Notes under the pieces: model-generated
Seen by the model: the letters and a program-made list of their open reading frames with translations, nothing else
Databases searched by the model: none
What the model was told of the DNA's origin: nothing
Source: Candidatus Mediterraneibacter vanvlietii
Lineage (GTDB): Bacteria > Bacillota > Clostridia > Lachnospirales > Lachnospiraceae
Direction of reading: 5' to 3'
Length of the DNA stretch: 64,000 bases
Assembly: GCA_019113645.1 (NCBI GenBank)
Contig: DXGZ01000027.1
Span: forward strand, 11,461 to 75,460
Program-made: the position numbers and the translations under genes
Part shown: piece by piece, positions 4,940-51,214 of the stretch
Layout of the letters: each line of letters begins with the position of its first letter
How positions within the stretch are numbered: position 1 is the first letter of the stretch

Positions 4940-6229
4940 TTATTTCAGCGCTGATTCTCTGAAAATGATATCGTCTCTTCCCGGACCATTGCTGATCATC
5001 GTGAACGGATATCCAACTTCTTTTTCAATAAATTCAATATATTTCCGGCAGTTTTCCGGGAGTTCCTCGTAGTTTCTGATTCCGCGGATATCTGTCTTCC
5101 AGCCCGGCAGTTTCTCGATCACCGGTTTTGCCTTTTCAAGAAGATGAGTTACCGGGAATTCCTTCGTGATCTCACCATCGATCTCATATCCGACGCAGAC
5201 CGGGATCTCGTCAAGGTATCCGAGAACATCGAGTACAGTGAACGCCACGTCCGTTGTTCCCTGCATACGGAGTCCGTACTTGGATGCCACGCAGTCAAAC
5301 CAGCCCACACGTCTCGGGCGTCCTGTCGTAGCGCCGTACTCGCCGCCGTCGCCGCCGCGTCTTCTCAGCTCCTCAGCCTCTTCGCCGAAGATCTCGCTTA
5401 CAAACGCGCCCGCTCCAACCGCGCTGGAGTATGCCTTGCAGACTGTGATCACCTGCTTGATCTCATACGGCGGGATTCCTGCGCCGATCGCACCGTATGC
5501 TGCCAGTGTGGAAGAAGACGTAACCATCGGATAGATTCCGTGATCCGGATCCTTCAGGGAACCGAGCTGTCCTTCCAGAAGGATGTTCTTTCCTTCCTTT
5601 ATCGCATTGTGGAGGAAGAGGGAAACATCGCATACATACGGCTCCACCATCTCACGGTAGCTTACAAGTTCTTTATATAATTCATCAGGATCGATCAGAG
5701 GTTTATGGTAAAGGTGCTCAAGCAGCACGTTCTTCTGCTCGGAAACGCGCACTACCTTTTCTTTCAGAAGCTCATCGTCAAAGAGCTCGCTTACCTGAAA
5801 ACCAATCTTTGCATATTTGTCTGAATAGAAAGGTGCAATACCTGATTTGGTTGATCCGAACGATTTTCCGCCCAGACGCTCCTCCTCGTATGCGTCAAAA
5901 TTCTTGTGATAGGACATCACCATCTGTGCTCTGTCAGATACAAGAATCTTCGGCATCGGAACACCGCGGTCCACAATGGACTGGATCTCCTTAAAAAGAA
6001 CCGGAACATCAAGCGCAACGCCGTTTCCGATTACGCTTGTCGTATGTCCGTAAAACACTCCGGAAGGCAGCGTATGCAGCGCAAATTTGCCGTAATCATT
6101 TACGATCGTGTGGCCTGCGTTCGCACCGCCCTGAAAACGGACGATGATATCTGCTTCTTTTGCAAGCATATCAGTAATCTTGCCTTTTCCCTCATCGCCC
6201 CAGTTTGCACCAACTACTGCTTTTACCAT
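4940..6229 (-). CDS. purA: adenylosuccinate synthase
   Basis: 429 aa. N-terminus VVGANWGDEGKGKITD and GGANAGHT are PurA signatures. RBS is aggagg. Confidence 0.95.
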   Translation of the reverse strand: MVKAVVGANWGDEGKGKITDMLAKEADIIVRFQGGANAGHTIVNDYGKFALHTLPSGVFYGHTTSVIGNGVALDVPVLFKEIQSIVDRGVPMPKILVSDRAQMVMSYHKNFDAYEEERLGGKSFGSTKSGIAPFYSDKYAKIGFQVSELFDDELLKEKVVRVSEQKNVLLEHLYHKPLIDPDELYKELVSYREMVEPYVCDVSLFLHNAIKEGKNILLEGQLGSLKDPDHGIYPMVTSSSTLAAYGAIGAGIPPYEIKQVITVCKAYSSAVGAGAFVSEIFGEEAEELRRRGGDGGEYGATTGRPRRVGWFDCVASKYGLRMQGTTDVAFTVLDVLGYLDEIPVCVGYEIDGEITKEFPVTHLLEKAKPVIEKLPGWKTDIRGIRNYEELPENCRKYIEFIEKEVGYPFTMISNGPGRDDIIFRESALK

Positions 6230-6765: not shown

Positions 6766-6852
6766 ATCATGAAACACTAAAATAAACCGGGTTTCCCTCA
6801 GATATCTGCTTTGATGTCTGTCAGGTTCCCGGTTTATTCTGTTTCCGATGAT

Positions 6853-8322
6853 TTATTCTGTTTTCAGCGGCTTATTCTGTTTCTGATCTGCCGTGATGCT
6901 CCACGCCCGGCCAAGCAGGCGGACAGCCTCGCGGATCTTCTCTTCATTCATGTTGGCGTATCCGAGCAGGATCACTGCATCATCATCCGCCGTATTCACG
7001 CCACCTTCTGCGGATCCGGCACTCTCCCCATTCACACAGTATTCGGACAGACCGTACACTTTGACTCCGCAGTCCGCCGCCAGCCGGATCAGTTCTTCCT
7101 CGCTTCTTCCGTCATGAAAATGAAGCAGAAGGTGAACACCGGCGTTTTCCCCGGATATCCGCACCGGTATCTTCAGTTCTTTCAGCGAGGCAAGCAGCGT
7201 ATCATGACGGCTCCTGTAGAGAGCCCTGGTCTTGTTCAGATGTCTCTCATAATACCCGCCTTCGATGAACTTCTGCAGGATCAGCTGATCCACTTTGGAC
7301 ACCGTGGAACTGATGAACCCGCAGCGCTCCCGGTACCTCTCAAGCACAGGCATCGGAAGCACAAGATAACTCATACGGATCGCAGGGGCGATTGATTTCG
7401 AAAATGTTCCGATATAGATTACTCTTCCGCTTCCGTCATACCCCTGCAGCGCCGGAATCGGCTTCCCCTTATAGCGGAACTCGCTGTCGTAATCATCCTC
7501 GACGATGTATCTTCCTTCTTCTTCATCCGCCCACCCGAGCAGTTCCATCCTTCTCCTGATCGGCATGACTGTCCCGAGCGGATAATGATGCGACGGCATG
7601 ACAAAGGCGATATCCGCCCCTGACTCTCTCAGCCGGTCCGTGCGCATGCCCTTTGCGTCCATATCCACCGTACATACCTCGTAGGACATATTTGCAAAGA
7701 GCCGGTACGCCTGACGGTAAGTCGGATTCTCAAGCGCCACCTTGTGCCCGCTGCCAAGAATCGTGCAGAGAAGCATCATCAGATAGTCATTCCCAGCGCC
7801 GACAATCACCTGTTCCGGCGTACAGTTCACTCCTCTTGCCTGATGGAGATAGCTGCTGATCGCATTCCGCAGTCCGTATTCCCCCTGCGGGCATCCCAGC
7901 CGGAACATCTCCGAACGGTCATCTGCAAGAGCCTCTCTGGACAGTTTTCGCCATGCATTATAGGGAAAGCTGTTCAGATCCACACCGCTTGGAGTAAAAT
8001 CATAGAGATATTTTTCCCGCTCATCCCCGGAGCCGGTCTGCGCCTCTCCCTGCGGAGCCGTGAGCTGATACAGCCCTTCGATCTGTGCTGCATAGTAGCC
8101 CTTATATGGAACTGATTCTATATATCCCTCTGACAGAAGCTGTTCATATGCCAGTTCAACGGTGCTTCGGCTGACGTCCAAATGACGGCAGAGCGAGCGG
8201 GTAGAAGGCAGCCTCTCCCCGCTCGCAATGCGTCCGTTTCTTATCTCGTCTCTGATGTATTCATAGATCTGTTCGTACATGGGAACCTTGTCCCCTGTTT
8301 TCAGATTAATGGTAATTTCCAT
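6853..8322 (-). CDS. MocR/PdxR-like regulator (GntR-type wHTH fused to a PLP-dependent aminotransferase fold)
   Basis: N-terminal PMYEQIYEYIRDEIRNGRIASGERLPSTRSLCRHLDVSRSTV is a GntR HTH. The remaining ~380 aa are aminotransferase-like (SFSKSIAP lysine motif). Confidence 0.9.
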   Translation of the reverse strand: MEITINLKTGDKVPMYEQIYEYIRDEIRNGRIASGERLPSTRSLCRHLDVSRSTVELAYEQLLSEGYIESVPYKGYYAAQIEGLYQLTAPQGEAQTGSGDEREKYLYDFTPSGVDLNSFPYNAWRKLSREALADDRSEMFRLGCPQGEYGLRNAISSYLHQARGVNCTPEQVIVGAGNDYLMMLLCTILGSGHKVALENPTYRQAYRLFANMSYEVCTVDMDAKGMRTDRLRESGADIAFVMPSHHYPLGTVMPIRRRMELLGWADEEEGRYIVEDDYDSEFRYKGKPIPALQGYDGSGRVIYIGTFSKSIAPAIRMSYLVLPMPVLERYRERCGFISSTVSKVDQLILQKFIEGGYYERHLNKTRALYRSRHDTLLASLKELKIPVRISGENAGVHLLLHFHDGRSEEELIRLAADCGVKVYGLSEYCVNGESAGSAEGGVNTADDDAVILLGYANMNEEKIREAVRLLGRAWSITADQKQNKPLKTE

Positions 8323-8331
8323 AATACTCCC

Positions 8332-10002
8332 TTATTTCGGCAGTCTGAATGAGCTCTTCAGCGACACAATCCGGTTGAACACAAGATGCTCCGGCGTTGA
8401 ATCGTGGGAATCAATACAGTAATATCCGTTTCTCACGAACTGATAACTGTCACGCGGCTGTGCATCGTCAAAACTCGGTTCCACAACCGCATCACGGATT
8501 ATGGTAAGTGAGTTCGGATTCAGGTTCAGGGAACCGTCTTCTTTATTGTAGACACCTTTCTCCTCATCAACCAGGTTCTCATACAGTCTGACTTCCGCTT
8601 TTTTCGCGTAATCCGCCGGAACCCAGTGGATCGTTCCTTTTACCTTTCTTCCGGTAAATCCGCTGCCTGCCTTTGTCTCAGGATCATAGGTGCAGTGAAC
8701 TACTGTCACATTGCCGTTCTCATCCTTCTCGAATCCAACACATTTCACAAAATAAGCATGCATCAGACGCACTTCGTTGCCCGGGAACAGACGGAAATAT
8801 TTCTTCGGAGGCTCTTCCATGAAGTCCTCGCGCTCAATGTAGAGTTCTCTTCCGAACGGAACTTTTCTGTATCCGAGCTCTTCGTTTTCGAGATTGTTCG
8901 CCACATCGAGATACTCAACCTCTCCTTCCGGATAGCTGTCGATCACCAGTTTGATCGGATCAAGTACAGCCATCATACGCGGACGCTTCATCTTGAGATC
9001 CTCGCGGATACAGTACTCAAGCATCGCGTAGTCCACGGAGCTCTGCGCCTTGGACACGCCGCACAGGTCGATAAACATCTTGATGGATTCCGGAGTAAAT
9101 CCACGTCTTCTGAGAGCCGCGATCGACACAAGGCGCGGATCATCCCAGCCGTCCACAATGCCGTCTTCCACCAGTTTCTTAATATATCTCTTTCCGGTCA
9201 CCACATTGGTCAGATACAGTTTCGCGAACTCGATCTGTCTCGGCGGATTCTCGAATTCACATTCATGCACTACCCAGTCATAGAGTGGTCTGTGATCCTC
9301 AAACTCCAGTGTGCAGATCGAATGTGTGATGCCTTCAATGGCATCCTCGATCGGATGAGCAAAATCGTACATCGGATAGATGCACCACTTATCCCCTGTA
9401 TTATGATGCGTCATATGCGCAACACGATAGATGATCGGGTCTCTCATATTAATGTTCGGCGAAGCCATATCGATCTTCGCACGGAGAACTTTCTCTCCGT
9501 CCGCGTATTTACCTTCTTTCATTTCCTCGAAAAGGCGAAGGTTCTCCTCTACGGAGCGGTTGCGGTAAGGACTTTCCTTCCCCGGCTCAGTCAGAGTACC
9601 GCGGTATTCTCTCATCTCTTCCGCCGTCAGATCACAGACGAATGCCTTGCCCTTTTTGATCAGTTTGACCGCGCACTCATACATCTGCTCAAAATAGTCT
9701 GACGCAAAATAAAGGTGCTCGCCCCAGTCCGCGCCAAGCCACTGAATATCTTCCTTGATAGAATCAACGAACTCCATCTTCTCCTTCGTCGGGTTCGTAT
9801 CATCAAACCTCATATGAAACGTACCGCCATATTTCTGAGCCAGCCCGTAATTTAAAAGGATTGACTTGGCATGTCCGATGTGGAGATACCCGTTCGGCTC
9901 AGGCGGGAAACGGGTACATACGTGATCGTATACGCCTTCTGCCAGATCCTTGTCTATTTCCTGCTCTATAAAATTCTTTGAAACAGCTGCTTCGTTTTCC
10001 AT
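8332..10002 (-). CDS. glnS: glutamine--tRNA ligase
   Basis: 556 aa with a class I HIGH motif ([14 protein letters not shown]). Length and overall pattern match GlnRS. RBS is gaggagg. Confidence 0.9.
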
Positions 10003-10090: not shown

Positions 10091-10444
10091 CTAGTTTTTT
10101 ACAAATTCATTTTTCCCTCTCTCGAAATATTTCCCCACCTCGGCCAGAAGCCTGGCAAAGTACAGGCACATCATCGGATCAATATTCGGATGCTGTTCCC
10201 GCAGATCATAATCCTGGACACCGATAAACATCATGTGCGAGGCCTTCCAGTCTCTTTCCAGCACAATATAGAGATCCTCGATATCGGTGCTCCCAATGCA
10301 CAGAAATATCTCGATATTATTTTTCATTGCGTCAAAACACCGGTAAAAATACGGCAGTTCATCTGTTTCCATGATGCGGATAAAATCCGTGAGCCTGACC
10401 AGCTCATCACGCAGATCGCCCAGTTCTCCTTTTCCTATTCTCAT
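10091..10444 (-). CDS. hypothetical protein (117 aa)
   Basis: Clean ORF with plausible codon usage. I recognise no motif. Confidence 0.45.
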   Translation of the reverse strand: MRIGKGELGDLRDELVRLTDFIRIMETDELPYFYRCFDAMKNNIEIFLCIGSTDIEDLYIVLERDWKASHMMFIGVQDYDLREQHPNIDPMMCLYFARLLAEVGKYFERGKNEFVKN

Positions 10445-14103: not shown

Positions 14104-15494
14104 TTTACTCCTTCCCGGGTGTCCTCCAGAATGATTCCTTTCTGGAGCAGCTCGTCTCTGATCTGGTCTGCCAGCGCGAAGTTTCTCTCTTTTCTGGCAG
14201 CCTGGCGCTTCTCAATCATTGCCTCGATCTCTTCATCCAGCATCTCTTCCTTGCGCTCAATGATAATTCCAAGCACATCCGTAAGCTTAAACAGGCGCTC
14301 GTACAGGCTGTCAAGATATTCTTTTGACCTGTTTCCATCTGCCGATGTATTGATATATTTAACAAGTTCAAACACTGAGGCAATCGCATCCGCGGTATTG
14401 AAATCATCATCCATCGCGCGTTCGAATCCTTCTGTGTAGACGTCCGCCTTAGCCAGCAGTTCTTTCTCTTCCTCTGTCAATGTCTCTGCTGAAGCGTTGT
14501 CGGATAAGAACTTCAGGTTTTCCGCTGCGGTCAGGATTCGCTCAAGACCGTTCTTCGCCGCTTCCATAAGCTCTGCGCTGAAGTTAAGCGGGCTTCTGTA
14601 ATGCGCGCTCAGCATGAAGAAACGCAGCACCTGAAGATCATATTTCTCGCTGATCTCTCTTACTGTGAAGAAGTTGCCCAGTGACTTTGACATCTTTCTG
14701 TTGTCAATGTTCAGGAATCCGTTGTGCATCCAGTATTTTGCGAATTCCTTTCCGTTCGCAGCCTCGCTCTGAGCGATTTCATTTTCATGGTGCGGGAAAA
14801 TCAGATCCTCGCCGCCGGCATGAATGTCGATCTGCTCACCGAGATATTTCTTAGACATCTCAGAGCACTCGATGTGCCAGCCCGGGCGTCCTTCACTCCA
14901 CGGAGACGTCCATGCAGGCTCGCCTTCCTTTTTCGGTTTCCAGAGAACGAAATCCAGCGGATCTTCCTTCTCATCCTCGCCGGTCACAAGCAGCGCTCTG
15001 CCGCCTGACTGAAGGTCATCCAGATTCTTGTGGGAGAGCTTGCCGTAATCCTCGAATTTTCTCGTGCGGTAGTAGACGGTTCCGTTTTTCTCATAGGCAT
15101 ACCCTTTGTCAATCAGCGTCTGGATCATGTCAACCATGCCGCAGATCTCTTCTGTTGCCAGCGGGTTCTTTGTCGCAGGCTTGATATTCATTGCGTCCAT
15201 GTCTTTCTTGCACTCAGCGATATACCGCTTGGATATCTCATCCGCTGTAACGCCCTCTTCAATGGCTTTCTTGATAATCTTGTCGTCTACATCTGTGAAA
15301 TTCGAGACAAAGTTCACATCATAGCCTCTGTATTCAAAATAACGTCTGACCGTGTCAAATACGATCATCGGACGCGCGTTCCCGATGTGAATAAAATTAT
15401 ATACGGTAGGTCCGCATACATACATTTTCACCTTACCCTCTTCCAGAGGTACAAATTCCTCTTTTCTTTTTGACATTGTGTTATAGATCTTCAT
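14088..15494 (-). CDS. cysS: cysteine--tRNA ligase
   Basis: 468 aa. [14 protein letters not shown]...[16 protein letters not shown] (HIGH) and KMSKSLGN (KMSKS). Confidence 0.95.
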
Positions 15495-16167
15495 CCTGAT
15501 CTCCTTTCCTGTTCAGACATCTCAGATCTTTCATAAGATTTTTCAGTTCTCTGTGAAGTCTGATATTTTCATCCTGTAATTTCTTGATATCATTTAAGAC
15601 AGGATCCGGCAGATGCACCTGATCCATGTCGAGCCTTGGAACTTTTTTGTTATCCATGCGGACGATACGGCCCGGCACGCCGACCACCGTACAGTTCGGG
15701 GGCACTTCCTCCAGTACAACGGAACCCGCGCCGATCTTGGAATTCTCTCCGATTGTAAATGAACCGAGAATCTTCGCGCCTGCACTCACCATCACGTTGT
15801 CTTCCAGTGTCGGATGGCGCTTGCCCTGCTCCTTTCCCGTACCGCCAAGCGTCACTCCCTGATAGAGCGTCACATTATCGCCGATTACCGTTGTCTCCCC
15901 GATGATCACACCGCTTCCATGATCGATGAATAGCCCTTTCCCGATCGTTGCGCCGGGATGAATCTCGATACCAGTCTTGCGCGCTGCTCTCTGTGAGATC
16001 CACCGTGCAAGGAAATAATGTTTCTTCAGATACAGCTTATGTGCAATTCTGTATTTTAAAATCACACGAAAGCTCGGATAGAGAAAGACTTCCAGATTCG
16101 ATTTAATCGCCGGGTCTCTCTCCTTAATCACCTGGATCTCTTCTTTTACATATGATATTATACCCAT
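15481..16167 (-). CDS. cysE: serine O-acetyltransferase
   Basis: Hexapeptide-repeat core [41 protein letters not shown]. It lies upstream of and overlaps cysS. Confidence 0.9.
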
Positions 16168-16235: not shown

Positions 16236-16525
16236 AGTTTCCATTGAAACAAAAAAACTCCGCCTCTGACAAGAGACGAAGTTTATCCGCGGTTCCACTC
16301 TAATTAAAAGAATTGTTTCTTTCACTCAAACTGCCTGTAACGCCGGCAAAACGTATTCCGCTACTTTCAGATGTATTGCACGGTTCGATATGCATCACCT
16401 GGTTCGCGGAATCAGCTCACGGAGGCACTTCGCAGAACGTCGGCACGGGGAGGCTTTCAGCCGGTGGCGTCCCCTCTCTGAGAGCTTCGTGATCTGTTAC
16501 TCTTTCCGTTCATCGCCTTTCTGAA
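16236..16525 (-). promoter_or_regulatory. T-box leader (Cys specifier UGC) controlling cysE-cysS
   Basis: All elements read on the minus strand: an AGAGAG box, a distal-loop-like ggcugaaa, cguucUGCgaag in the specifier position (plus 16432-16434), the T-box sequence agaGUGGaACCGCGg (plus 16286-16300), and then the terminator cuucgucucuugucagaggcggag plus U7. Confidence 0.7.
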
Positions 16526-19129: not shown

Positions 19130-19167
19130 GATCTAGGTTGATTTGAGGACCAAAACATTATTAACAT

Positions 19168-19241
19168 GGCGGAATAGCTCAGTTGGCTAGAGCACACGGT
19201 TCATACCCGTGGTGTCGCTGGTTCAAATCCAGTTTCCGCTA
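19168..19241 (+). tRNA. tRNA-Met (anticodon CAT, elongator-like)
   Basis: Hand-folded cloverleaf with anticodon arm CACGG-TTCATAC-CCGTG. It lacks the three consecutive G-C pairs in the anticodon stem that mark initiator tRNA. The anticodon arm resembles Bacillus elongator tRNA-Met. Confidence 0.85.
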
Positions 19242-19357
19242 CTGAATGAAGCTCCGTGCCTACGGGGCTTTTTCTATTTCACAATACTCTATAATTTTAT
19301 TTTAGCTGGTTTTTGTCGCCTGGTTTGAAAATGCCTCTCCGCCTTGCGAGAACGACC

Positions 19358-20245: not shown

Positions 20246-20349
20246 ACTCCAACGTAATTATTATTGATTTTTATCCCTATTTAAGCAGACTGTTGAATTG
20301 CAGAGAATTATATAATCAAAAAGCTCCGTAAATACGGAGCTTCATTCAG

Positions 20350-20423
20350 TAGCGGAAACTGGATTTGAACCAGCGACACCACGGGTATGAACCGTGTGCT
20401 CTAGCCAACTGAGCTATTCCGCC
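20350..20423 (-). tRNA. tRNA-Met (anticodon CAT), identical to the copy at 19168-19241
   Basis: Its reverse complement matches the plus-strand copy at every one of the 74 positions when compared by eye. It shares the same 16-nt trailer and a similar terminator. Confidence 0.9.
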
Positions 20424-20437
20424 ATATCAGGTTTTTA

Positions 20438-38109: not shown

Positions 38110-39420
38110 TCATAAACCATCCTTTCGTAAATCAGTCACTCTTCTTGCCTTGCCCTCAAATCTCTGCAGTGTGTTCGGAGCCACCAGACGGATCTGCGTT
38201 GCAAGGCCGAGCTGTGATTTCAATGCGCGTTTAATCCGTGATTCCAGTTCGCTCAGTTTTGTATAACTGTCCAGAAGCCTGTCGTCAACCAGCTCCACAG
38301 TGATTGTCATAACGTCAAGCCGGTTCTTTCTCTCGACAAGGATCTCATAATGAGGTCCGATTTCTTCGATTTTCAGAAGCACTTCCTCTATCTGTGTCGG
38401 GAATACATTCACGCCTCTGATCACAAGCATGTCATCCGCACGGCCGGAAATATTCTCCATACGTACCGTTGTTCTGCCGCATTTACAAGGTTCATACATC
38501 AGGCGTGTCAGGTCTCCGGTACGATATCTGACAAGCGGAAGGGCTTCTTTGCCAAGGCAGGTTACAACCAGTTCCCCCAGTTCTCCCGGAGGAAGCACTT
38601 CCTCTGTCTCCGGATTGATGATCTCCGGTATAAACCAGTCTTCATTCACATGCATTCCACACAGCTCAGGACATTCTCCTGCAACCCCTGGTCCGCACAG
38701 TTCGCTCATTCCGTAATTCTGCGTACAGAGGAAATTCTCGCCCCAGACTTTGTGCATCTCGTCCCTCATAGCTTCTGTCATCCCTTCGCCTCCGAAGAGA
38801 CCGATATGAAGTTTAAGATCTTTTTCCGGGTCAAGTCCTCTCCTTCTGATCTCCTCGCCAAGATGAAGTGCATATGACGGTGTCGCGACAAGCAGCGTCA
38901 CTCCCATATCCTGCAGAAACATGATCTGTTTGTTCGTATTCCCCGAGGACATGGGAATCACAGACGCTCCGATTTTCTCCAGTCCTCCGTGGAGTCCCAG
39001 CGCTCCGGTAAATGTACCGTATCCGAACGAAATCTGAGCCACATCGTCCGCTGTCGCGCCGCCCATGCACGCAAGCCTTGCCACGTTGTTGAGCCACATA
39101 TCAAGATCATTTCTCGTATAGCCGACAACTGTTGGTTTTCCTGTCGTACCGGAGCTCGCATGATAGCGGACAATCTCTTTTTTGTCTACCGCAAACAGAC
39201 CGTCCGGATAATTGTCCCTGAAATCTGTTTTATATGTAAAGGGCAGTTTCTTCAGATCCTCCAGTGTATTTATATCTTGCGGCTTCACGCCCGCCGCATC
39301 CATCTTGGCACGGTATGGCTGCACTCTGTCATAAATATAGCGAACCGTATCCTTTAATTTCGATAGCTGGATCGCCTCAATCTCTTCTCTTGGCAGAGTT
39401 TCTTCCTTTGCCCATATCAT
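38110..39420 (-). CDS. paaK: phenylacetate--CoA ligase family protein (copy 2)
   Basis: SSGTTGKPT motif; paralogue of 33947-35278. I chose the ATG at 39420 (gaaggagg RBS). The ORF track extends to 39468. Confidence 0.85.
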   Translation of the reverse strand: MIWAKEETLPREEIEAIQLSKLKDTVRYIYDRVQPYRAKMDAAGVKPQDINTLEDLKKLPFTYKTDFRDNYPDGLFAVDKKEIVRYHASSGTTGKPTVVGYTRNDLDMWLNNVARLACMGGATADDVAQISFGYGTFTGALGLHGGLEKIGASVIPMSSGNTNKQIMFLQDMGVTLLVATPSYALHLGEEIRRRGLDPEKDLKLHIGLFGGEGMTEAMRDEMHKVWGENFLCTQNYGMSELCGPGVAGECPELCGMHVNEDWFIPEIINPETEEVLPPGELGELVVTCLGKEALPLVRYRTGDLTRLMYEPCKCGRTTVRMENISGRADDMLVIRGVNVFPTQIEEVLLKIEEIGPHYEILVERKNRLDVMTITVELVDDRLLDSYTKLSELESRIKRALKSQLGLATQIRLVAPNTLQRFEGKARRVTDLRKDGL

Positions 39421-39520
39421 TGTACATAACCTCCTTCGGTAAAAGTTCGCCTTTTGATAGTATAACACATTACTTTCTCAATTTAAAGCGTTAATTTCAG
39501 AAAAGCTAAAGTTTATGACC

Positions 39521-40409
39521 AGCTATTTAGTTAATCAGGTTCGCTGACTTTTGGAGACGATATTTTCGAAAACAGGGAAGCATTCTAAAACGTATTCTGC
39601 AGAGGCTGAGGGTATGTTCAGGGCTCCGCTCCAGGGTCTAAGTGAATCTAAGAAGTTCCGGGCATGGACTAAATGCAAGGACAGCCGGCGAGCAACTCGC
39701 TTTGCTCAAACAATCTCGCCGTCTGCCCTAACGTCCATGTCCGGAACTTCAAGATTCACTAAGTCCCTTTCGAAGTCACCCTGCCCACACCCTCAACCTC
39801 AGCAGAAAGTTTCTTGAAATGGGGGCTGTTTTCTGCTTTATCGGCTGGGAAAGTCATCGAATAATCAACTGAGAAAAACAGAGGCGCGGCAGGAAAGCCT
39901 TACAATGTGTAAGTCCTTCAAGCCGCGCTGTATTGCGGTTTTCTAAGTCTATTTATAGAATGATCAGAGGGAAAAATGACAAAGGCGGAAGTGTACTGGA
40001 AATCAGAAGGTGTTGTTAATAATTAAGCCGGCAGCAAAACTATGCTGCCGGCCGCACTTTTGTTTTCTTCAGCCTGTTAGGCAGTAATTACCGATCTGGA
40101 TGGAACAGAAAACAGACCCTATTGCAAAAACTTTTCTGCCGGGAGGGAGACTGTGGGCGGCTGACTTCGGAGGGGGATTAGGCAAACTTGGAGTTCCGGG
40201 GAGGGACGTTGAGGCAGGCGGTGAGATTGTCTGAGCGTAGCGAGTTGCTCACCGTCTGTCTCTGCTTTTAGTCCGTCCCCGGAACTCCTTAGTTTCCCTT
40301 ATCCCCCGGAGCGGAAGCCGCCCACAATCCCCCTCCCGGCAGAATACGTCTTGTAAATCCACTCTGTTTTCGTCCGATTTGAAACCGGTAATTATTGAAC
40401 TAAATAGCT
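39521..40409. repeat. ~0.89-kb non-coding nested palindrome, copy 2 of the family at 1511-2577
   Basis: Alignable by eye to copy 1 end to end. Hairpin A is at 39597-39805 and hairpin A' at 40136-40342. The inner hairpin is at 39881-39928 and the central hairpin at 40027-40052. TIRs are agctatttagtt and aactaaatagct. It lacks the right-hand inner hairpin present in copy 1. Confidence 0.85.
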
Positions 40410-40539
40410 CCCCCCTTGACAAGGGTGCTATAGTATAGGTGTAACAGGAAACAAACACTTAACAACACCTGCTTTTAAGTACAAAGTGAATGGCTGCTAA
40501 GCGTAATTTCAATGATTCAGTGATTGGAGGAAAAGATAA

Positions 40540-41130
40540 ATGAATACTTTAAAAGCTGAAAAAAGAGACATGACAATTAAAGCCAAGAAACTTAGACGTG
40601 AAGGATTTGTTACCGGATGCATCTTCGGCCGGGAAATGGCAGAGTCCATCCCGCTGAAAATGGATAAGGGCGATGTAGACCGGCTCCTCAAAACAGAGGG
40701 CAAAGGCGGAAGGATCCGTCTGGAAGTAGACGGCCAGGCATACGATGCCCTGATCAAAGAAGTTGATTATAACGCAATGAAAGGCTGGGTCGATGAGATT
40801 GATTTCCAGGCGCTTGTCAGCACGGAGAAAGTTCACTCATCTGCTGAGATTCACCTGATCAACACCGATAAACTTGCTGCCGGTGTTCCGCAGCAGATGC
40901 TCCATGAAGTAGACTTCAAGGCATTGCCGTCAGCACTGGTTGAAAAGATCGAGCTTGATATCGGCGAACTGAAAGTCGGCGATACCATCCGTGTCAAAGA
41001 TCTTGACATTGCAAATGATAAAGATGTGGATCTTTCTACTGATCTTGACGCTACCGTTGTTACCATCACAGAGGTACACGCGTCATCGGCTGAGACCGCA
41101 GAGGAAACAGAGGACTCTGCTGCAGAGTAA
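40540..41130 (+). CDS. rplY: 50S ribosomal protein L25 / general stress protein Ctc
   Basis: MNTLKAEKRDMTIKAKKLRREGFV... is an L25/Ctc N-domain followed by an acidic C-terminal extension. RBS is ggagga. Confidence 0.9.
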   Translation: MNTLKAEKRDMTIKAKKLRREGFVTGCIFGREMAESIPLKMDKGDVDRLLKTEGKGGRIRLEVDGQAYDALIKEVDYNAMKGWVDEIDFQALVSTEKVHSSAEIHLINTDKLAAGVPQQMLHEVDFKALPSALVEKIELDIGELKVGDTIRVKDLDIANDKDVDLSTDLDATVVTITEVHASSAETAEETEDSAAE

Positions 41131-46750: not shown

Positions 46751-46990
46751 TGTTAAGAAAATCTACGGTTTTCTTTCATCTCCAGTTTATAAATTTCCCG
46801 TTTCTTTTATTCTTTCATCATACTTTGTCCACAATTACCGTCTATACTTAACATCAGATAGTTGATAAACAACTATCTTCCCCCTCATAAAGTTCAGACG
46901 CCAGAAGGCGTCGCACTTTACTCTCATTCCTTTAGATAACTATAAAACAACGAAACCCGTCAGACTTGCGGCTGACGGGTTTTCGCTGTT
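46751..46990 (+). repeat. ~240-bp direct repeat R1 (left flank of the HipA-like cassette)
   Basis: Alignable by eye over its whole length to 48576-48818. It contains three hairpins, including the terminator-like acccgtcag/ctgacgggt. Confidence 0.85.
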
Positions 46991-47022: not shown

Positions 47023-47856
47023 TTACACAGTCTCAGTTTTTCGAAATAAATAGGAATATGTCCGCCGCTGCTGAAGAAGAACTTCTTTTATCCGAACTTT
47101 TATATCATCCGGGTAATACTCTTCTTTCGCCAGCAATTCGTTTATGATTCCTTCATCGTAGGTAAAATAAAGATTCTGACCATACAGATCCTCTGCCACA
47201 TCAAGTTGTTCCATAAAATCTGAACTCAATGTTTTCGCCTTCACCTGAGGAATCAGGCTGATAATATCCTCCCCCATTGGATAATCTGCTGTCGTATCCG
47301 AAAGGAGTGCGCTTCCATTATCAAACACCGGGCAATAATGATACCTGCCGGCATCATCATACAGGACAGCGATGTTATGCATATGTCTGTCCTCGTTGAG
47401 AAACAGCGCATCAATTGTCAGAAGTCTGCTTAAATAAGGTCCAAATTCTTTCAGCCCCGTCATCAGTTCAACCTGTTCAACCAGAAAACGGGCGCGTTCT
47501 TCAACTCCCTCTATTCGATAAAGACTTTGATAAAGGCTCTGTCCATAGAGATTCTTAAACAAACGTTCCAACGTAATAAGCTGCCATCCGTCCGGCAGGA
47601 AATTCAGGCTTTTACACCCGCGGTACAATGCTTTTTTATATCCGATTTCTTCTGTCTGATATTGAATAAATTCCATATTCTTCAGATTAGAATACGATAA
47701 AAGCCCGGATACCATATATTCCGCCAGCCCCTCATAGCCTGTATAATCAGCTTTATACCAGATGCCATTCCGTTCCCACTTAAACTGATTTCCTTTTGAT
47801 GATTGCATCGGTGAATTTTTCATATACGTATCATCCAGCCGGATCATTCCTGTCAC
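47023..47856 (-). CDS. short HipA-like serine/threonine kinase (HipA C-terminal domain only), putative toxin
   Basis: 277 aa. LNEDRHMHN matches the HipA catalytic-loop pattern N-x-D-[DR]-H-x-x-N, and PVFDNGSAL is the Mg-binding-type motif. It overlaps the upstream HTH gene by 4 nt. Confidence 0.75.
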   Translation of the reverse strand: MTGMIRLDDTYMKNSPMQSSKGNQFKWERNGIWYKADYTGYEGLAEYMVSGLLSYSNLKNMEFIQYQTEEIGYKKALYRGCKSLNFLPDGWQLITLERLFKNLYGQSLYQSLYRIEGVEERARFLVEQVELMTGLKEFGPYLSRLLTIDALFLNEDRHMHNIAVLYDDAGRYHYCPVFDNGSALLSDTTADYPMGEDIISLIPQVKAKTLSSDFMEQLDVAEDLYGQNLYFTYDEGIINELLAKEEYYPDDIKVRIKEVLLQQRRTYSYLFRKTETV

Positions 47857-48392
47857 CTCTCAATCTTAAGCCAGAAACTGTCCTCCGCCATTCGCCCTTC
47901 CGTTTTCTGGACAATCAGAAACGGATCGTAAAACGGAAGATTCAATTCGTTCAATATAATTTTCATTTTATCGCGGCTTCTTGGAAAACAGCGAGATTCC
48001 AGAAATTCCTCATAATCCTTATAGGACGGATGCTCATTTCTTCCAAAAGCACGAAAAGCAGGATCCATTGTAAAATTCTTGATCTTCACCCGCTGTTCGC
48101 GATCATCCACATCCATAACGGTACACAGCCGCTCCTCATACATGTACCTGATTCGAAGCGGAAACGTGCGCTCAGGAATTTCCAGTTCCTCCACCAGCCA
48201 GCTGCGCTCTCTGAGAATATCGAGCATCACCGCCGCAGTCCCCTTCGCGCACCCGCCGCTCCCTTCCCAATGAGCTATGGTTTTCACGGATACATTCATT
48301 AATTCTGCCAGTTCTTTCTGTTTTAATTTTAACATCTTCCGAATCCGTTTTACCTCGGCTGCAGATAATGTTTTTTGCAGAGCAAACTCCAT
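47853..48392 (-). CDS. XRE-family HTH protein with a ~110-aa C-terminal extension, putative antitoxin partner
   Basis: IRKMLKLKQKELAELMNVSVKTIAHWE is an XRE-type HTH. I do not recognise the C-terminal half. Confidence 0.75.
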   Translation of the reverse strand: MEFALQKTLSAAEVKRIRKMLKLKQKELAELMNVSVKTIAHWEGSGGCAKGTAAVMLDILRERSWLVEELEIPERTFPLRIRYMYEERLCTVMDVDDREQRVKIKNFTMDPAFRAFGRNEHPSYKDYEEFLESRCFPRSRDKMKIILNELNLPFYDPFLIVQKTEGRMAEDSFWLKIER

Positions 48393-48575: not shown

Positions 48576-48818
48576 TGTTCTTAAGACAATCTATCATTTT
48601 CTTTCATCCCCAGTTTATAATTTTCCCATTTCTTTTATTCTTTCATCATACTTTGTCCACATTTTCCGTTTATACTTTACGTCAGATAGTTGATAAACAA
48701 CTATCTTCCCCCTCATAAAGTTCAGGCGCAATGAAGCGCCGCACTTTACTCTCATTCCTTTTAGATAACTATAAACAACGAAACCCGTCAGACTTGCGGC
48801 TGACGGGTTTTCGCTGTT
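48576..48818 (+). repeat. ~240-bp direct repeat R2 (right flank of the HipA-like cassette)
   Basis: Same orientation as R1, starting 1825 bp downstream of the R1 start. It has the same three hairpins, with a compensatory change in the middle one. Confidence 0.85.
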
Positions 48819-48825
48819 AAAAATT

Positions 48826-49535
48826 CTGATTTTTCTACTGGAAACAAAATCAGAGAGTGGAGGTTTTCGACAGGCTGACGTTCAAAAACAGGAGACTGCA
48901 TCACCATGCTTCGCCCACTTACTTCAAAGCTTTGAATGGATGTAACGACGGAACCAGATGTTCGTGCAAAGGCACTCCATCTGTCCCCGCCTAACATCCA
49001 GAACAAAGGCTTTTCAGACGTTCCTGCTCAAATGCATGGTTCACGCAGTCTCCTGTTTTTGAACTGATTCATCCGATCGGAAAATAGCAGCCGCAGCTTT
49101 TGTTTCCGCTAAAAACAGAATTTGAGACAAGAGGAAGTGGTCGGAAGGAGATCAACGAAGATTTCAAAATCAATACCGGAACATTAAAAATGTCACCTTC
49201 GTCAGTTGCCTTCCGACCGCTTTTTCCCATTTGAAATCCTGCATTTTTCTGCCGGGAACTGTCTGCCTGGAACGACATCTGCCGACCGGATGAAGCCGGA
49301 AAAGAAGGAAATGTATAAGCCATACAATCTGGAGCAGGAGTGTATGAAAAGCCTTCGTTCCAGATGTTAAAAAGCGACAGATGAAGTGCCTTTGCACGCA
49401 CATCTGTCGCTTTTGTTACATCTGTTCGAAGCTTTGAAGGAACGGGCTCCGTATGGCGTTACATTTCCTTCTTTCCCGGCGCCTTCCGTTTAGCCGTTAT
49501 CGCTCCTGCTCGAATGTTCCCGATCAGAAAAATTC
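48826..49535. repeat. ~0.7-kb non-coding nested palindrome (third element; same architecture as 1511-2577 but different sequence)
   Basis: Hairpin H1 is at 48880-49064 and central hairpin H2 at 49139-49218. Hairpin H3 at 49298-49476 is the reverse complement of H1 by eye (tip cgtgcaaaggcac versus gtgcctttgcacg). The outer arms also pair (gatttttct / agaaaaat). Confidence 0.75.
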
Positions 49536-49540
49536 AAAAT

Positions 49541-51214
49541 TTATTTGTAATATACTACCGCTTCATAAGGTTTCATCTTCATCGCCCCTTCAGCAGTTAC
49601 CTCCGTCTCCGCATAGTTTCCGAGAATCTTCTCGAATCCTTCCAGTTCCGGAGCGTTCTTCCACTCATAATCCCTGCCGTAGAAGTTTGCCGCCACGATC
49701 ATCTCATGGCCTTCATAAGTTCTGCGGTAAGCGAATACGGACGGATTCTTCTGATCCAGCGGTTCGATATCGCCGTATGCGATCACATCCAGATCTTTTC
49801 TCATGGCGATCAGCTTCTGATAATAATGGAAGATGGAATCCTCATCTTTCAGCTGGTCCGCGGCATTTACTTTTGTGTGGTTTGAATTGACTGCGATCCA
49901 CGGTTCGGCAGCGCTGTCCTCAGCTGTGAATCCTGCGTATCTGGATGCATCCCACTGCATCGGCGTACGTCCATTGTCACGGGAGTGAACCTGGATGATG
50001 CGCAGCGCGTCAGACGGGGACATTCCCTTATCCTGAAGGATCTGATAATTGTTCAGGCTCTCCACATCACGGAACTGTGAGATATCGGTAAAGTCCGTGT
50101 TTGTCATACCGATCTCCTCGCCCTGGTACACATACGGTGTACCTCTCAGGCAGTGTACGATCGTTCCCAGCATTTTTGCAGATTCTTTCCAGTACTTTCC
50201 TTCATCGCCAAAACGTGACACGACTCTCGGCTGATCGTGGTTGCACCAGAACACTGCGTTCCATGCGTCGTGCTCCTCCATGTTTACCTGCCAGTCGAAC
50301 ATGATATCTTTTAATTTCTGGAAATCAGCCGGCACAAGCACCCATTTCTCATTACCCATGAAATCCACTTTCAGGTGATGGAAGCTGAATACCATAGTCA
50401 GCTCGCCCGTATCAGCGCCTGCGTACTGGAAGCAGTTCTCCATCGTTGTACTGGACATCTCGCCCACGGTCACGATCTGCGGATCCTGTCCGAAAGAATT
50501 TGCGTTAAGTCCTTTCAGATACTGATGGATCTTCGGACCGTCCGTATAGAATTTTCTTCCGTCGCCGTCCGGATCATCCTCGAATCCCGCCTTGCTGATC
50601 AGGTTGATTACATCGAAGCGGAATCCTTTTACACCCTTTTCCATCCAGAATTTCACGATATTCTGAACTTCTCTTCTGACATTCTCATTCTCCCAGTTCA
50701 GGTCAGCCTGTGTTACATCGAAGAGGTGAAGGTAATACTCGTCAAACTTCTCCACGTATTCCCAGGCGCTTCCGCCGAATTTGCTCACCCAGTTCGTCGG
50801 CGCGCTTCCGTCCGGTTTGCCTTTCCTGAAGTAGAAGAAATCTTTGTAGTACGGATCTCCCTGCATGGCTTTCTTAAACCATTCATGGTCGGTGGAAACA
50901 TGGTTGAATACCATGTCAAACATCAGTCCCATGCCGCGTTTATCGGCCTCGGCGATCAGTTCGTCCACATCCTCCATGGTTCCGTAGCGGGGGTCGATGT
51001 TATAGTAATCCGCCACATCATAACCGTTATCGTTCTGAGGAGATACGAAAAACGGAGTAAGCCAGATATAGTCAACGCCAAGTTCCTTAATATAGTCAAG
51101 TTTCTCAATTACGCCTCTTAAGTCTCCCAGTCCGTCTTTATTTGTATCACAGAAGGACTTCGGATAGATCTGATAAACCGTGCTCTTTCTGAAATCTTTA
51201 TTCATAGCTTTCAC
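49541..51214 (-). CDS. treC: alpha,alpha-phosphotrehalase (GH13 trehalose-6-phosphate hydrolase)
   Basis: 557 aa. VYQIYPKSF...GDL.G...KLDY...LTP...DNGYD and NHVS/GFRFD/EM.. GH13 motifs. It resembles B. subtilis TreA and lies downstream of the trehalose-type PTS gene. Confidence 0.85.
   Translation of the reverse strand: MKAMNKDFRKSTVYQIYPKSFCDTNKDGLGDLRGVIEKLDYIKELGVDYIWLTPFFVSPQNDNGYDVADYYNIDPRYGTMEDVDELIAEADKRGMGLMFDMVFNHVSTDHEWFKKAMQGDPYYKDFFYFRKGKPDGSAPTNWVSKFGGSAWEYVEKFDEYYLHLFDVTQADLNWENENVRREVQNIVKFWMEKGVKGFRFDVINLISKAGFEDDPDGDGRKFYTDGPKIHQYLKGLNANSFGQDPQIVTVGEMSSTTMENCFQYAGADTGELTMVFSFHHLKVDFMGNEKWVLVPADFQKLKDIMFDWQVNMEEHDAWNAVFWCNHDQPRVVSRFGDEGKYWKESAKMLGTIVHCLRGTPYVYQGEEIGMTNTDFTDISQFRDVESLNNYQILQDKGMSPSDALRIIQVHSRDNGRTPMQWDASRYAGFTAEDSAAEPWIAVNSNHTKVNAADQLKDEDSIFHYYQKLIAMRKDLDVIAYGDIEPLDQKNPSVFAYRRTYEGHEMIVAANFYGRDYEWKNAPELEGFEKILGNYAETEVTAEGAMKMKPYEAVVYYK

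Follow-up and report, generated by a model that had tools for sequence, protein, structure and literature searches.

What is the long palindromic stretch that follows the treC-like gene of Candidatus Mediterraneibacter vanvlietii? The locus lies in 64,000 nucleotides of this genome (GenBank assembly GCA_019113645.1, contig DXGZ01000027.1, positions 11,461 to 75,460), called here the window and numbered from its own first letter. An earlier interpretation based on the letters alone, below the sequence-only reading, had noted about 700 bp without a credible open reading frame (ORF) between a repeat, R2 (48581–48818), and the stop codon of the treC-like gene (49541–49543), and had described there a hairpin, a central hairpin and an inverted hairpin. 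Both bounds and the plan are right, and the same plan is seen in two other elements of the window, at about 1510–2579 and 39520–40410. The region belongs to a repeat that is lineage-specific, high-copy, non-coding, modular, palindromic and bounded by terminal inverted repeats (TIRs). We think it probable that it is one copy of a repeat similar to REP sequences (repetitive extragenic palindromes) and BIMEs or to miniature inverted-repeat transposable elements (MITEs), about ten times larger than these and spread in trans.

The whole tripartite element, type W, is non-coding and occupies about 724 bp (48819–49542); neither it nor its hairpins are assigned to a strand. Its ends are the positions where the homology with two other loci, L104 (1323–2046) and L138, starts and stops; loci fetched for comparison are denoted by L and three digits. 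The left TIR, AAAAATTCTGATTTTTCTACTGGAAAC (48819–48845, plus strand), pairs with the right end, and its terminus is shared by L104, L089, L098 and L122. The right TIR (49516–49542, reading AAATTTTGAATTTTTCTGATCGGGAAC on the minus strand), the terminus of which was also compared with relatives, overlaps the TAA stop codon of the treC-like gene by its first two A's. The pairing of the outermost flanks, noted earlier, is weak in the window itself (17 nt, 76%), but the relatives show a real TIR of 26–27 nt.

Hairpin module H1 (48841–49109, 269 nt) has a conserved core at 48872–49071 and the tip at 48957–48985. It is followed by the central hairpin H2 (49118–49242), also present in other type W copies, and by hairpin module H3 (49253–49522, 270 nt), whose core (49290–49487) is the reverse complement of the H1 core; the outer stems of H3 and H1 differ. 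Thus the two outer hairpins exist as described in the sequence-only reading, although their extents had been drawn too small. The outer stem of H1 is perfect (48880–48899 with 49045–49064, 20 nt at 100%). H3 has its own stems at 49370–49383/49401–49414 (100%) and 49253–49315/49460–49522 (73% over 63 nt), and its arms do resemble H1 read backwards, positions 48919–49029 and 49332–49442 being 79% reverse-complementary over 111 nt. The tips, CAGATGTTCGTGCAAAGGCACTCCATCTG and GACAGATGAAGTGCCTTTGCACGCACATCTGTC, are exact reverse-complement relatives. The H2 stem ggtcggaagg/ccttccgacc (49139–49148/49209–49218) is found in the minimum-free-energy fold of both strands.

The repeat is dispersed. The core pattern, scanned in one genome per species, matched at least 118 stretches in about 25 Mediterraneibacter/Lachnospiraceae genomes. 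Among the matches listed, nearly all are in Mediterraneibacter and allied Lachnospiraceae metagenome-assembled genomes (MAGs), and all are intergenic; the isolate [Ruminococcus] faecis JCM 15917 also bears copies, at L052 and L131. At least 25 stretches occur in Mediterraneibacter sp. E0_RP0 bin151, which among the matches listed is closest to the window (90–94% identity), at least 20 in Ca. M. faecavium and at least 11 in Ca. M. surreyensis. A profile search of the matched loci confirmed 171 module copies. A scan of metagenome contigs with the tip pattern yielded 21 matches, three of them true relatives. Hence the sequence-only reading counted correctly three such structures in 64 kb, but this number is not unexpected, since this dispersed repeat is present in dozens of copies in each genome. 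Many of the short-read contigs have their end within an element. As the elements break short-read assemblies and coincide with apparent changes of synteny, they matter for the quality of Mediterraneibacter MAGs and for the comparison of strains.

The building block is an imperfect hairpin module of about 270–330 nt with a conserved core of about 200 nt. H1 and H3 belong to family 2, whereas the elements at 1510–2579 and 39520–40410 represent family 1. In the alignment of 103 distinct family-2 cores (alignment A4), the RNAalifold consensus has 52 pairs, 46 of which show double compensatory changes. The outer stems are almost wholly different between subfamilies and complementary in every case, and the inner stems switch jointly (GGATGT/ACATCC to CCATGT/ACATGG, GTGC/GCAC to GTTC/GAAC). 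The unpaired parts are conserved and asymmetric (GAAT versus AGAAC, AAC versus CTA), and two CTCT(A)CCT-like bulges lie on either side of the GTTCCG/CGGAAC helix. Since snap-back copying of an arm would erase the conserved asymmetric loops, the structure itself must be selected.

The single-strand fold of the treC element has an energy of −290.9 kcal/mol on the plus strand (z = −12.8) and −321.6 kcal/mol on the minus strand (z = −17.4); with 20 shuffles per strand, the real energies were reached by none on either strand. The lack of a credible ORF noted earlier was borne out: the longest has 110 amino acids (aa), Pfam at E ≤ 1 matches none of eight ORFs, and a three-base periodicity is lacking in the substitutions among relatives. 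An assembly of chance palindromes, or an inverted gene duplication in decay, would explain the short spurious ORFs and nothing more. It is at odds with the fold z-scores, with the lack of both Pfam matches and codon periodicity, and with the existence of hundreds of homologous copies bearing compensatory changes; the family alignment refutes it, and we assign it a negligible probability.

The searches for known counterparts were negative. Rfam was scanned at the gathering threshold over the whole window and by E-value for both families: none of the 4227 models matched an element at the gathering threshold, and the sub-threshold matches were mostly to microRNA-precursor, that is, generic hairpin, models. 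The gathering-threshold matches in the window were tRNAs and a T-box only. BLAST against plasmid and phage collections gave no match to the element, and a tip-pattern scan gave none in viral contigs. Scans for sigma-70 promoters and terminators demonstrated no enrichment within the elements. A full-text literature search of incomplete coverage, so that an earlier description elsewhere is possible, retrieved no published account of these repeats.

Each module has a preferred strand. In 102 of the 103 family-2 cores the better-folding strand is the reverse complement of the alignment orientation (by 12.6 kcal/mol on average), and the identical asymmetry is seen in all 13 family-1 cores (18.4 kcal/mol); for H1, the minus strand is the better one (−111.9 vs −99.2 kcal/mol). 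The asymmetry holds with DNA energy parameters as well. In the alignment orientation, A·C plus C·A pairs outnumber G·U pairs (166 vs 62), with 24 pair columns leaning one way and 8 the other. In two-module elements the better-folding strands are directed outward, the left module folding better on the minus strand and the right module on the plus strand. This polarity is observed in 38 of 38 family-2 pairs, in the family-1 pairs of the window, and in at least 14 mixed family-2/family-1 elements. The sole tandem exception, L081, lies where a contig starts and probably results from a fold-back in the assembly. Mutation bias was considered as the source of the asymmetry and rejected: the arms of one element share the direction of replication and transcription, and hence such a bias cannot explain their opposite polarities. 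The modules are therefore structurally selected and strand-specific, and we infer that each module is read, by some process, on one particular strand in the single-stranded form.

The ends of the elements fall into several types. In type W (the window, L104 and L138) both sides end with AAAT(T/C)(C/T)TGA(T/A)TTTTTCTGAT(C/T)GGGAAC. L104 is a different locus, adjoining a GH3 gene. It shows 89.5% identity to the window across 631 nt, and since this identity spans H2, the repeated thing is the tripartite unit; the whole unit occurs at several loci within one genome. Type A has a 20-nt TIR, CAGCTATTTAGTTCATTAAC. Its six copies in bin151 are about 750 bp long, with the TIRs 730–738 nt apart and unrelated flanks. 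The family-1 elements at 1510–2579 and 39520–40410 have type A ends but are longer, and each contains two 270-nt modules with outward polarity. The former has a 380-nt central hairpin, the distal half of which is missing from the latter, and its centre contains a sigma-70-like sequence on the minus strand (2066–2039, 10 of 12 positions matching). Further end types occur, and there are true single modules of about 330 nt with ends AAAATCCATCTTTG. The TIRs (type W, 26–27 nt; type A, 20 nt) are of the kind expected of MITEs. The target-site duplication also expected of MITEs is lacking: no flanking direct repeat was found at the six type A or the three type W copies.

The 18-nt motif of the type A TIR deserves a remark. 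Its 40 matches in viral contigs all fall at one unrelated phage gene junction without modules, and we rejected them as a coincidence of an A+T-rich 18-mer. In these IMG/VR contigs (L156–L194) the 18-mer, GCTATTTAATTCATTAAC, recurs in a family of phage contigs, at the junction between variable sequence upstream and a conserved gene segment downstream (tgccccgatcaaagtc...). It has no relation to the hairpin elements and may be a sign of a module boundary in a phage gene.

The centre of composite elements varies from absent to about 260 nt. Inspection by eye shows in most of them an A-tract, a G+C-rich stem and a T-tract, e.g. AAACGGGAAGA...TCTTCCCGTTTTTAT, and H2, followed on the plus strand by GCTTTTTCCC, has the same terminator-like look. 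Judging from the sequence, the central hairpin looks like a bidirectional terminator. The terminator scanner made no call on H2, perhaps because its loop limit of 3–8 nt excludes such hairpins. In two loci the usual inward-facing arrangement of modules is retained with the arms far apart: in L103 (721–2843) they are separated by about 1.8 kb (1786 nt) and enclose the genes for a DUF2000 protein and a CPBP-like protease, and in L027 (1655–2967), by about 1.0 kb (959 nt), enclosing a gene for a small membrane-anchored protein of 178 aa. Apparently, genes can end up between the arms.

How are the two families related? The sequence-only reading had noticed only weak similarity of the treC element to the first family, and this agrees with the profile searches, as neither nhmmer profile matched the window elements of the other family at E ≤ 1e-4. 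It had also proposed to score the element with a family-1 covariance model. With the model built from 13 family-1 cores and run on the 64-kb window, H3 is the best match outside family 1, but at 18.5 bits (rough E 0.014), and H1 has 8.9 bits; the H3 score is marginal, because a hairpin model favours any long hairpin. By eye, and in the same polarity, both families have GAYGTTAGG on the 5′ arm and TTA(G/C)-TCC and CGGAAC on the 3′ arm. What links the families most strongly is architecture: joint TIR-bounded elements, mutual substitution at loci, and the common polarity rule. At 14 loci or more, the two sides of a single element are formed by hairpins of different families, one of family 2 and one of family 1, and obey the same rule. 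Thus the families are not independent.

The treC locus exists in three alleles. Where contigs of the same species encode an identical TreC-like protein, the element is the same too (99–100% identity) and always in the window orientation; the family-2/H2/family-2 form is the first allele. In L149–L154 (98% TreC identity) a family-1-type module is situated within the same outer stem (CTGATC...TTCGAGCAGGAG). In L147 (GCA_017889505.1, 97% TreC identity) the stop codon and the R repeat are separated just by a mini-hairpin of 80 nt, the termini of which are related. The arrangement asked about earlier, treC directly followed by the TetR gene, is not what is seen in L004, where the order is treC, element, single R, TetR; L147 has the mini-hairpin in place of the element. 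Replacement is also seen elsewhere: in L102, from a species at 81% identity, a family-2 module takes the place of the window's family-1 module at the locus orthologous to 39520–40410. Beside a conserved gene of the BadF/BcrA type (1431 aa), an orthologous element of about 640 nt differs in orientation between species: L054 and L056 have the whole of it inverted as compared with L041 and L120; the flanks are collinear, and the overlaps at both junctions amount to about 23 nt. At this locus L053 retains one arm, and the above-mentioned L027 has its widely spaced arms. Hence elements turn over by arm exchange, deletion and inversion.

The inversion, with its collinear flanks and junction overlaps, is what one would expect if the TIRs were recombination sites and flipping altered the expression of neighbours. 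Contigs often break within elements, which would fit this explanation too, but such breaks are expected at any repeat. The element is nearly two-fold symmetric, so that flipping changes little; it shows no promoter enrichment inside; all same-species treC contigs share one orientation; and no invertase was noticed beside the elements, where the clustering screen detects recurrent ORFs only. We regard such an invertible switch as very improbable.

In L195–L198, compared with window positions 38110–40540, and in L205 and L206, compared with 184–2983, the genes past the element differ between samples. Upstream of the gene for L25 they are NYN/metallophosphatase, MerR/ABC, HSP20/MatE, or an AMP-binding enzyme, depending on the sample; upstream of the flavoprotein gene, ArsC-like or DUF1540. 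Either the elements are breakpoints of rearrangement, or the assemblies are chimeric at the repeat.

The elements are placed predominantly at the 3′ ends of genes: 144 3′ ends and 63 5′ ends face them, and of the flanking gene pairs 38 are convergent, 30 tandem and 8 divergent. For 102 junctions, a stop codon (TAA in 54, TGA in 33, TAG in 15) lies 20–90 nt from the edge of the hairpin core, and in most listed junctions the element terminus lies between a 2-nt overlap with the stop codon and about 10 nt past it. The placement rule is positional and independent of which stop codon is used. One possible cause is that insertions are tolerated nowhere but between the stop codon and the terminator. 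Another is that nearness to the terminating ribosome may matter, by analogy with REP sequences near stop codons, for which Liang, Rudd and Deutscher in 2015 are said to have found such closeness important.

At treC, a canonical intrinsic terminator on the treC strand (48781–48810, minus strand, terminator scan) ends R2 and hence lies past the element; in L147 the same terminator is reached only about 80 nt past treC. As this is the sole canonical terminator of treC, the treC transcript should run through the whole element.

According to another view, the element is a host cis-acting RNA of the 3′ untranslated region (UTR), acting as a portable bidirectional insulator. The central hairpin would stop transcription from both sides, and the giant hairpins would stabilise the mRNA 3′ end, tune termination at the stop codon and block antisense read-through. 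This view accommodates strong covariation and the conserved internal loops, elements that begin at stop codons, their enrichment between convergent genes, the terminator-like centre of most composites, the likely transcription of the treC element upstream of its terminator, and the retention of elements at orthologous loci across species. Moreover, an antisense read-through transcript would carry, of each arm, the more stable strand. It fares worse with the variable centre, which may be absent altogether, with the swapping of modules of different families at one locus, with the strain having only an 80-nt remnant, with the wide differences in copy number among genomes, with elements in divergent promoter regions, e.g. 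39520–40410, and with the lack of matches to Rfam families. At that, it is compatible with a selfish origin and is not an alternative to it. As the explanation of the repeat we consider it rather unlikely.

The closest known analogues are the REP/BIME/REPIN elements of Proteobacteria, mobilised by RAYT, a Y1 HUH transposase. Like these, the family is intergenic, lineage-restricted and high-copy (at least 25 stretches in one MAG), and consists of imperfect palindromic units whose asymmetry sets the orientation. The units alternate in inverted orientation around linkers and form mosaic elements (38 of 38 pairs and at least 14 mixed ones); they are found at gene 3′ ends near stop codons without target duplication; and they show long vertical persistence with expansion within lineages. 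Unlike REP/BIME/REPIN, the units are about 269–330 nt rather than 20–40 nt, whole elements reach 550–1000 bp, TIRs of 20–27 nt and a terminator-like central hairpin are present, and the host is a member of the Firmicutes. No RAYT-like gene was found in the fetched loci, and no GTAG-type 5′ motif was noted.

MITEs, Correia, BOX, RUP and ERIC elements are similar in being non-coding, TIR-bounded, intergenic and modular (BOX is A-Bn-C), and in forming hairpins when transcribed that can affect neighbouring genes. However, the window family is much longer and shows no target-site duplication, and no cognate insertion sequence (IS) with the same ends, as MITEs would have, was found in the fetched loci. 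MITEs of the DDE type need no long covarying hairpin with conserved loops, whereas each half of the window family is one. The palindrome-associated elements (PATEs) of IS200/IS605 likewise lack target duplication, are strand-specific, and have subterminal hairpins that are likely read single-stranded. Their end hairpins, however, both lie on the same (top) strand without TIRs, and they insert 3′ of a fixed tetra- or pentanucleotide, while our modules lie on opposite strands with TIRs; the window hairpins are about ten times longer; the left junctions vary, and no conserved target tetranucleotide was seen.

The size and one-strand character of the modules also recall the sso (ssoA, ssoU, ssoT) and ssi/Frpo hairpins, which are imperfect, 150–330 nt long, functional on one strand and provided with conserved unpaired motifs. 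The modules could then be strand-specific single-stranded DNA (ssDNA) signals, analogous to those that rolling-circle plasmids and conjugative elements have as single-strand origins or primosome sites, or recombination hotspots shaping chromosome rearrangement. A module of 200–300 nt with strict strand specificity would suit this idea, and the outward polarity would place the better-folding strands on the lagging-strand templates of forks diverging from the centre. The synteny upstream of the L25 and flavoprotein genes differs between samples exactly at the element, but synteny breaks in short-read metagenome contigs can be assembly chimeras. Further, sso and ssi/Frpo occur once per plasmid or integrative and conjugative element near replication or transfer genes, whereas the window family has dozens of chromosomal copies beside ordinary genes, with no replication or relaxase gene nearby and no matches in plasmids or phages; no CS-6 motif (TAGCGT) of sso was noted in it. 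We hold this assignment to be very improbable.

We return to the preferred reading, that of a repeat spread in trans. Under it, an enzyme acting in trans would bring about the copying or conversion of the unit between loci; it would recognise the folded module on one specific strand. Reading of one folded strand, we propose, is why the module is kept as a single-stranded structure (ssDNA or RNA) and not as plain duplex. The element would be transcribed within the 3′ UTR of the neighbouring gene, where the long hairpins and the central terminator probably block read-through and 3′ exonucleases; such a barrier could make insertions tolerable or even mildly useful to the host.

Several observations weigh against this reading. 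No transposase or recombinase was found, and no recurrent neighbour protein among the ORFs of the 121 loci; clustering of the ORFs near these copies brought out nothing but spurious ORFs within the repeats and neighbours that are orthologous housekeeping genes. The widely spaced module pairs enclose ordinary genes, and no inverted TIR pairs more than about 740 nt apart occur in the fetched loci. Empty sites were sought by exact-protein look-ups with the treC-like protein, three homologues, L25 and the flavoprotein, followed by comparison of relatives with the same synteny: no clean one was found, and at the loci of treC, L25 and the flavoprotein all related strains examined have an element in one form or another; L130 matches the window on one flank only. 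Hence gene conversion between resident copies could explain the turnover. That elements persist at orthologous positions in different species agrees equally well with a host function and with old selfish DNA. The strand that folds better is antisense to the neighbouring gene, and a simple hairpin role in the 3′ UTR does not predict this. Finally, the aligned sequences share descent, so the copy counts overstate the number of independent events.

Few long non-coding repeats exist in bacterial genomes, and the known ones (REP/BIME, MITEs, BOX, Correia) are short. The family described here is unusual in its 270-nt units, very strong compensatory evolution, strict polarity, arm exchange and stop-codon placement, and the carriers of dozens of copies are abundant Lachnospiraceae of the human and poultry gut. 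We tentatively entertain, as a possibility below an even chance, that the modules represent a new class of strand-specific structured nucleic acid (about 200–270 nt, with stems that covary and conserved internal loops forming a pseudo-symmetric pair) read by a dedicated protein that places them at stop codons with outward polarity. This would be either a new hairpin-guided mode of transposition or conversion, or, for the 3′ ends of genes in gut Firmicutes, a new insulator that is portable and works in both directions. Mobility of the family would imply that long hairpins are read by a mechanism not recognised so far, and its adoption by the host would make it a device of a new type at gene 3′ ends.

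The treC-like gene (49541–51205, minus strand) encodes a GH13 alpha-glucosidase of the trehalose-6-phosphate hydrolase type. To the right of the element on the minus strand it is accompanied by the gene for a phosphotransferase system (PTS) EIIBCA protein, which lies upstream of it together with a divergent gene for a GntR/UTRA regulator. To the left of the element are, in order, R2, an HTH_3 gene, a gene for a 277-aa protein, the repeat copy R1 and the TetR gene.

R1 (46753–46990) and R2 form a direct repeat of 240 bp with a terminal terminator, bracketing gene cassettes that vary between strains. The window has R, the HTH_3 gene with the 277-aa gene, and R, while L004 has a single R without this cassette. 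L147 contains three copies (7748–7973, 8462–8687, 10150–10377) in the order R, DUF4180, R, HTH_3 with a 264-aa gene, R. L081 also has three (638–880, 5033–5271, 6819–7056), with about 4 kb extra between R copies. This looks like a cassette array built through recombination at R. The window cassette (47023–48392, minus strand) encodes an HTH_3 protein of 179 aa and then the 277-aa protein, the latter with a weak sub-threshold match to HipA_C (E 0.0038); from sequence resemblance, the pair may be a HipBA-like toxin–antitoxin system.

The window has two further features of note. An inverted duplication of 108 nt with 96% identity (19166–19273 and 20318–20425) holds two tRNA-Met genes, situated on opposite strands about 1 kb apart. 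A T-box leader (16269–16522, minus strand, 113.9 bits) lies upstream of the ORF at 15481–16167.

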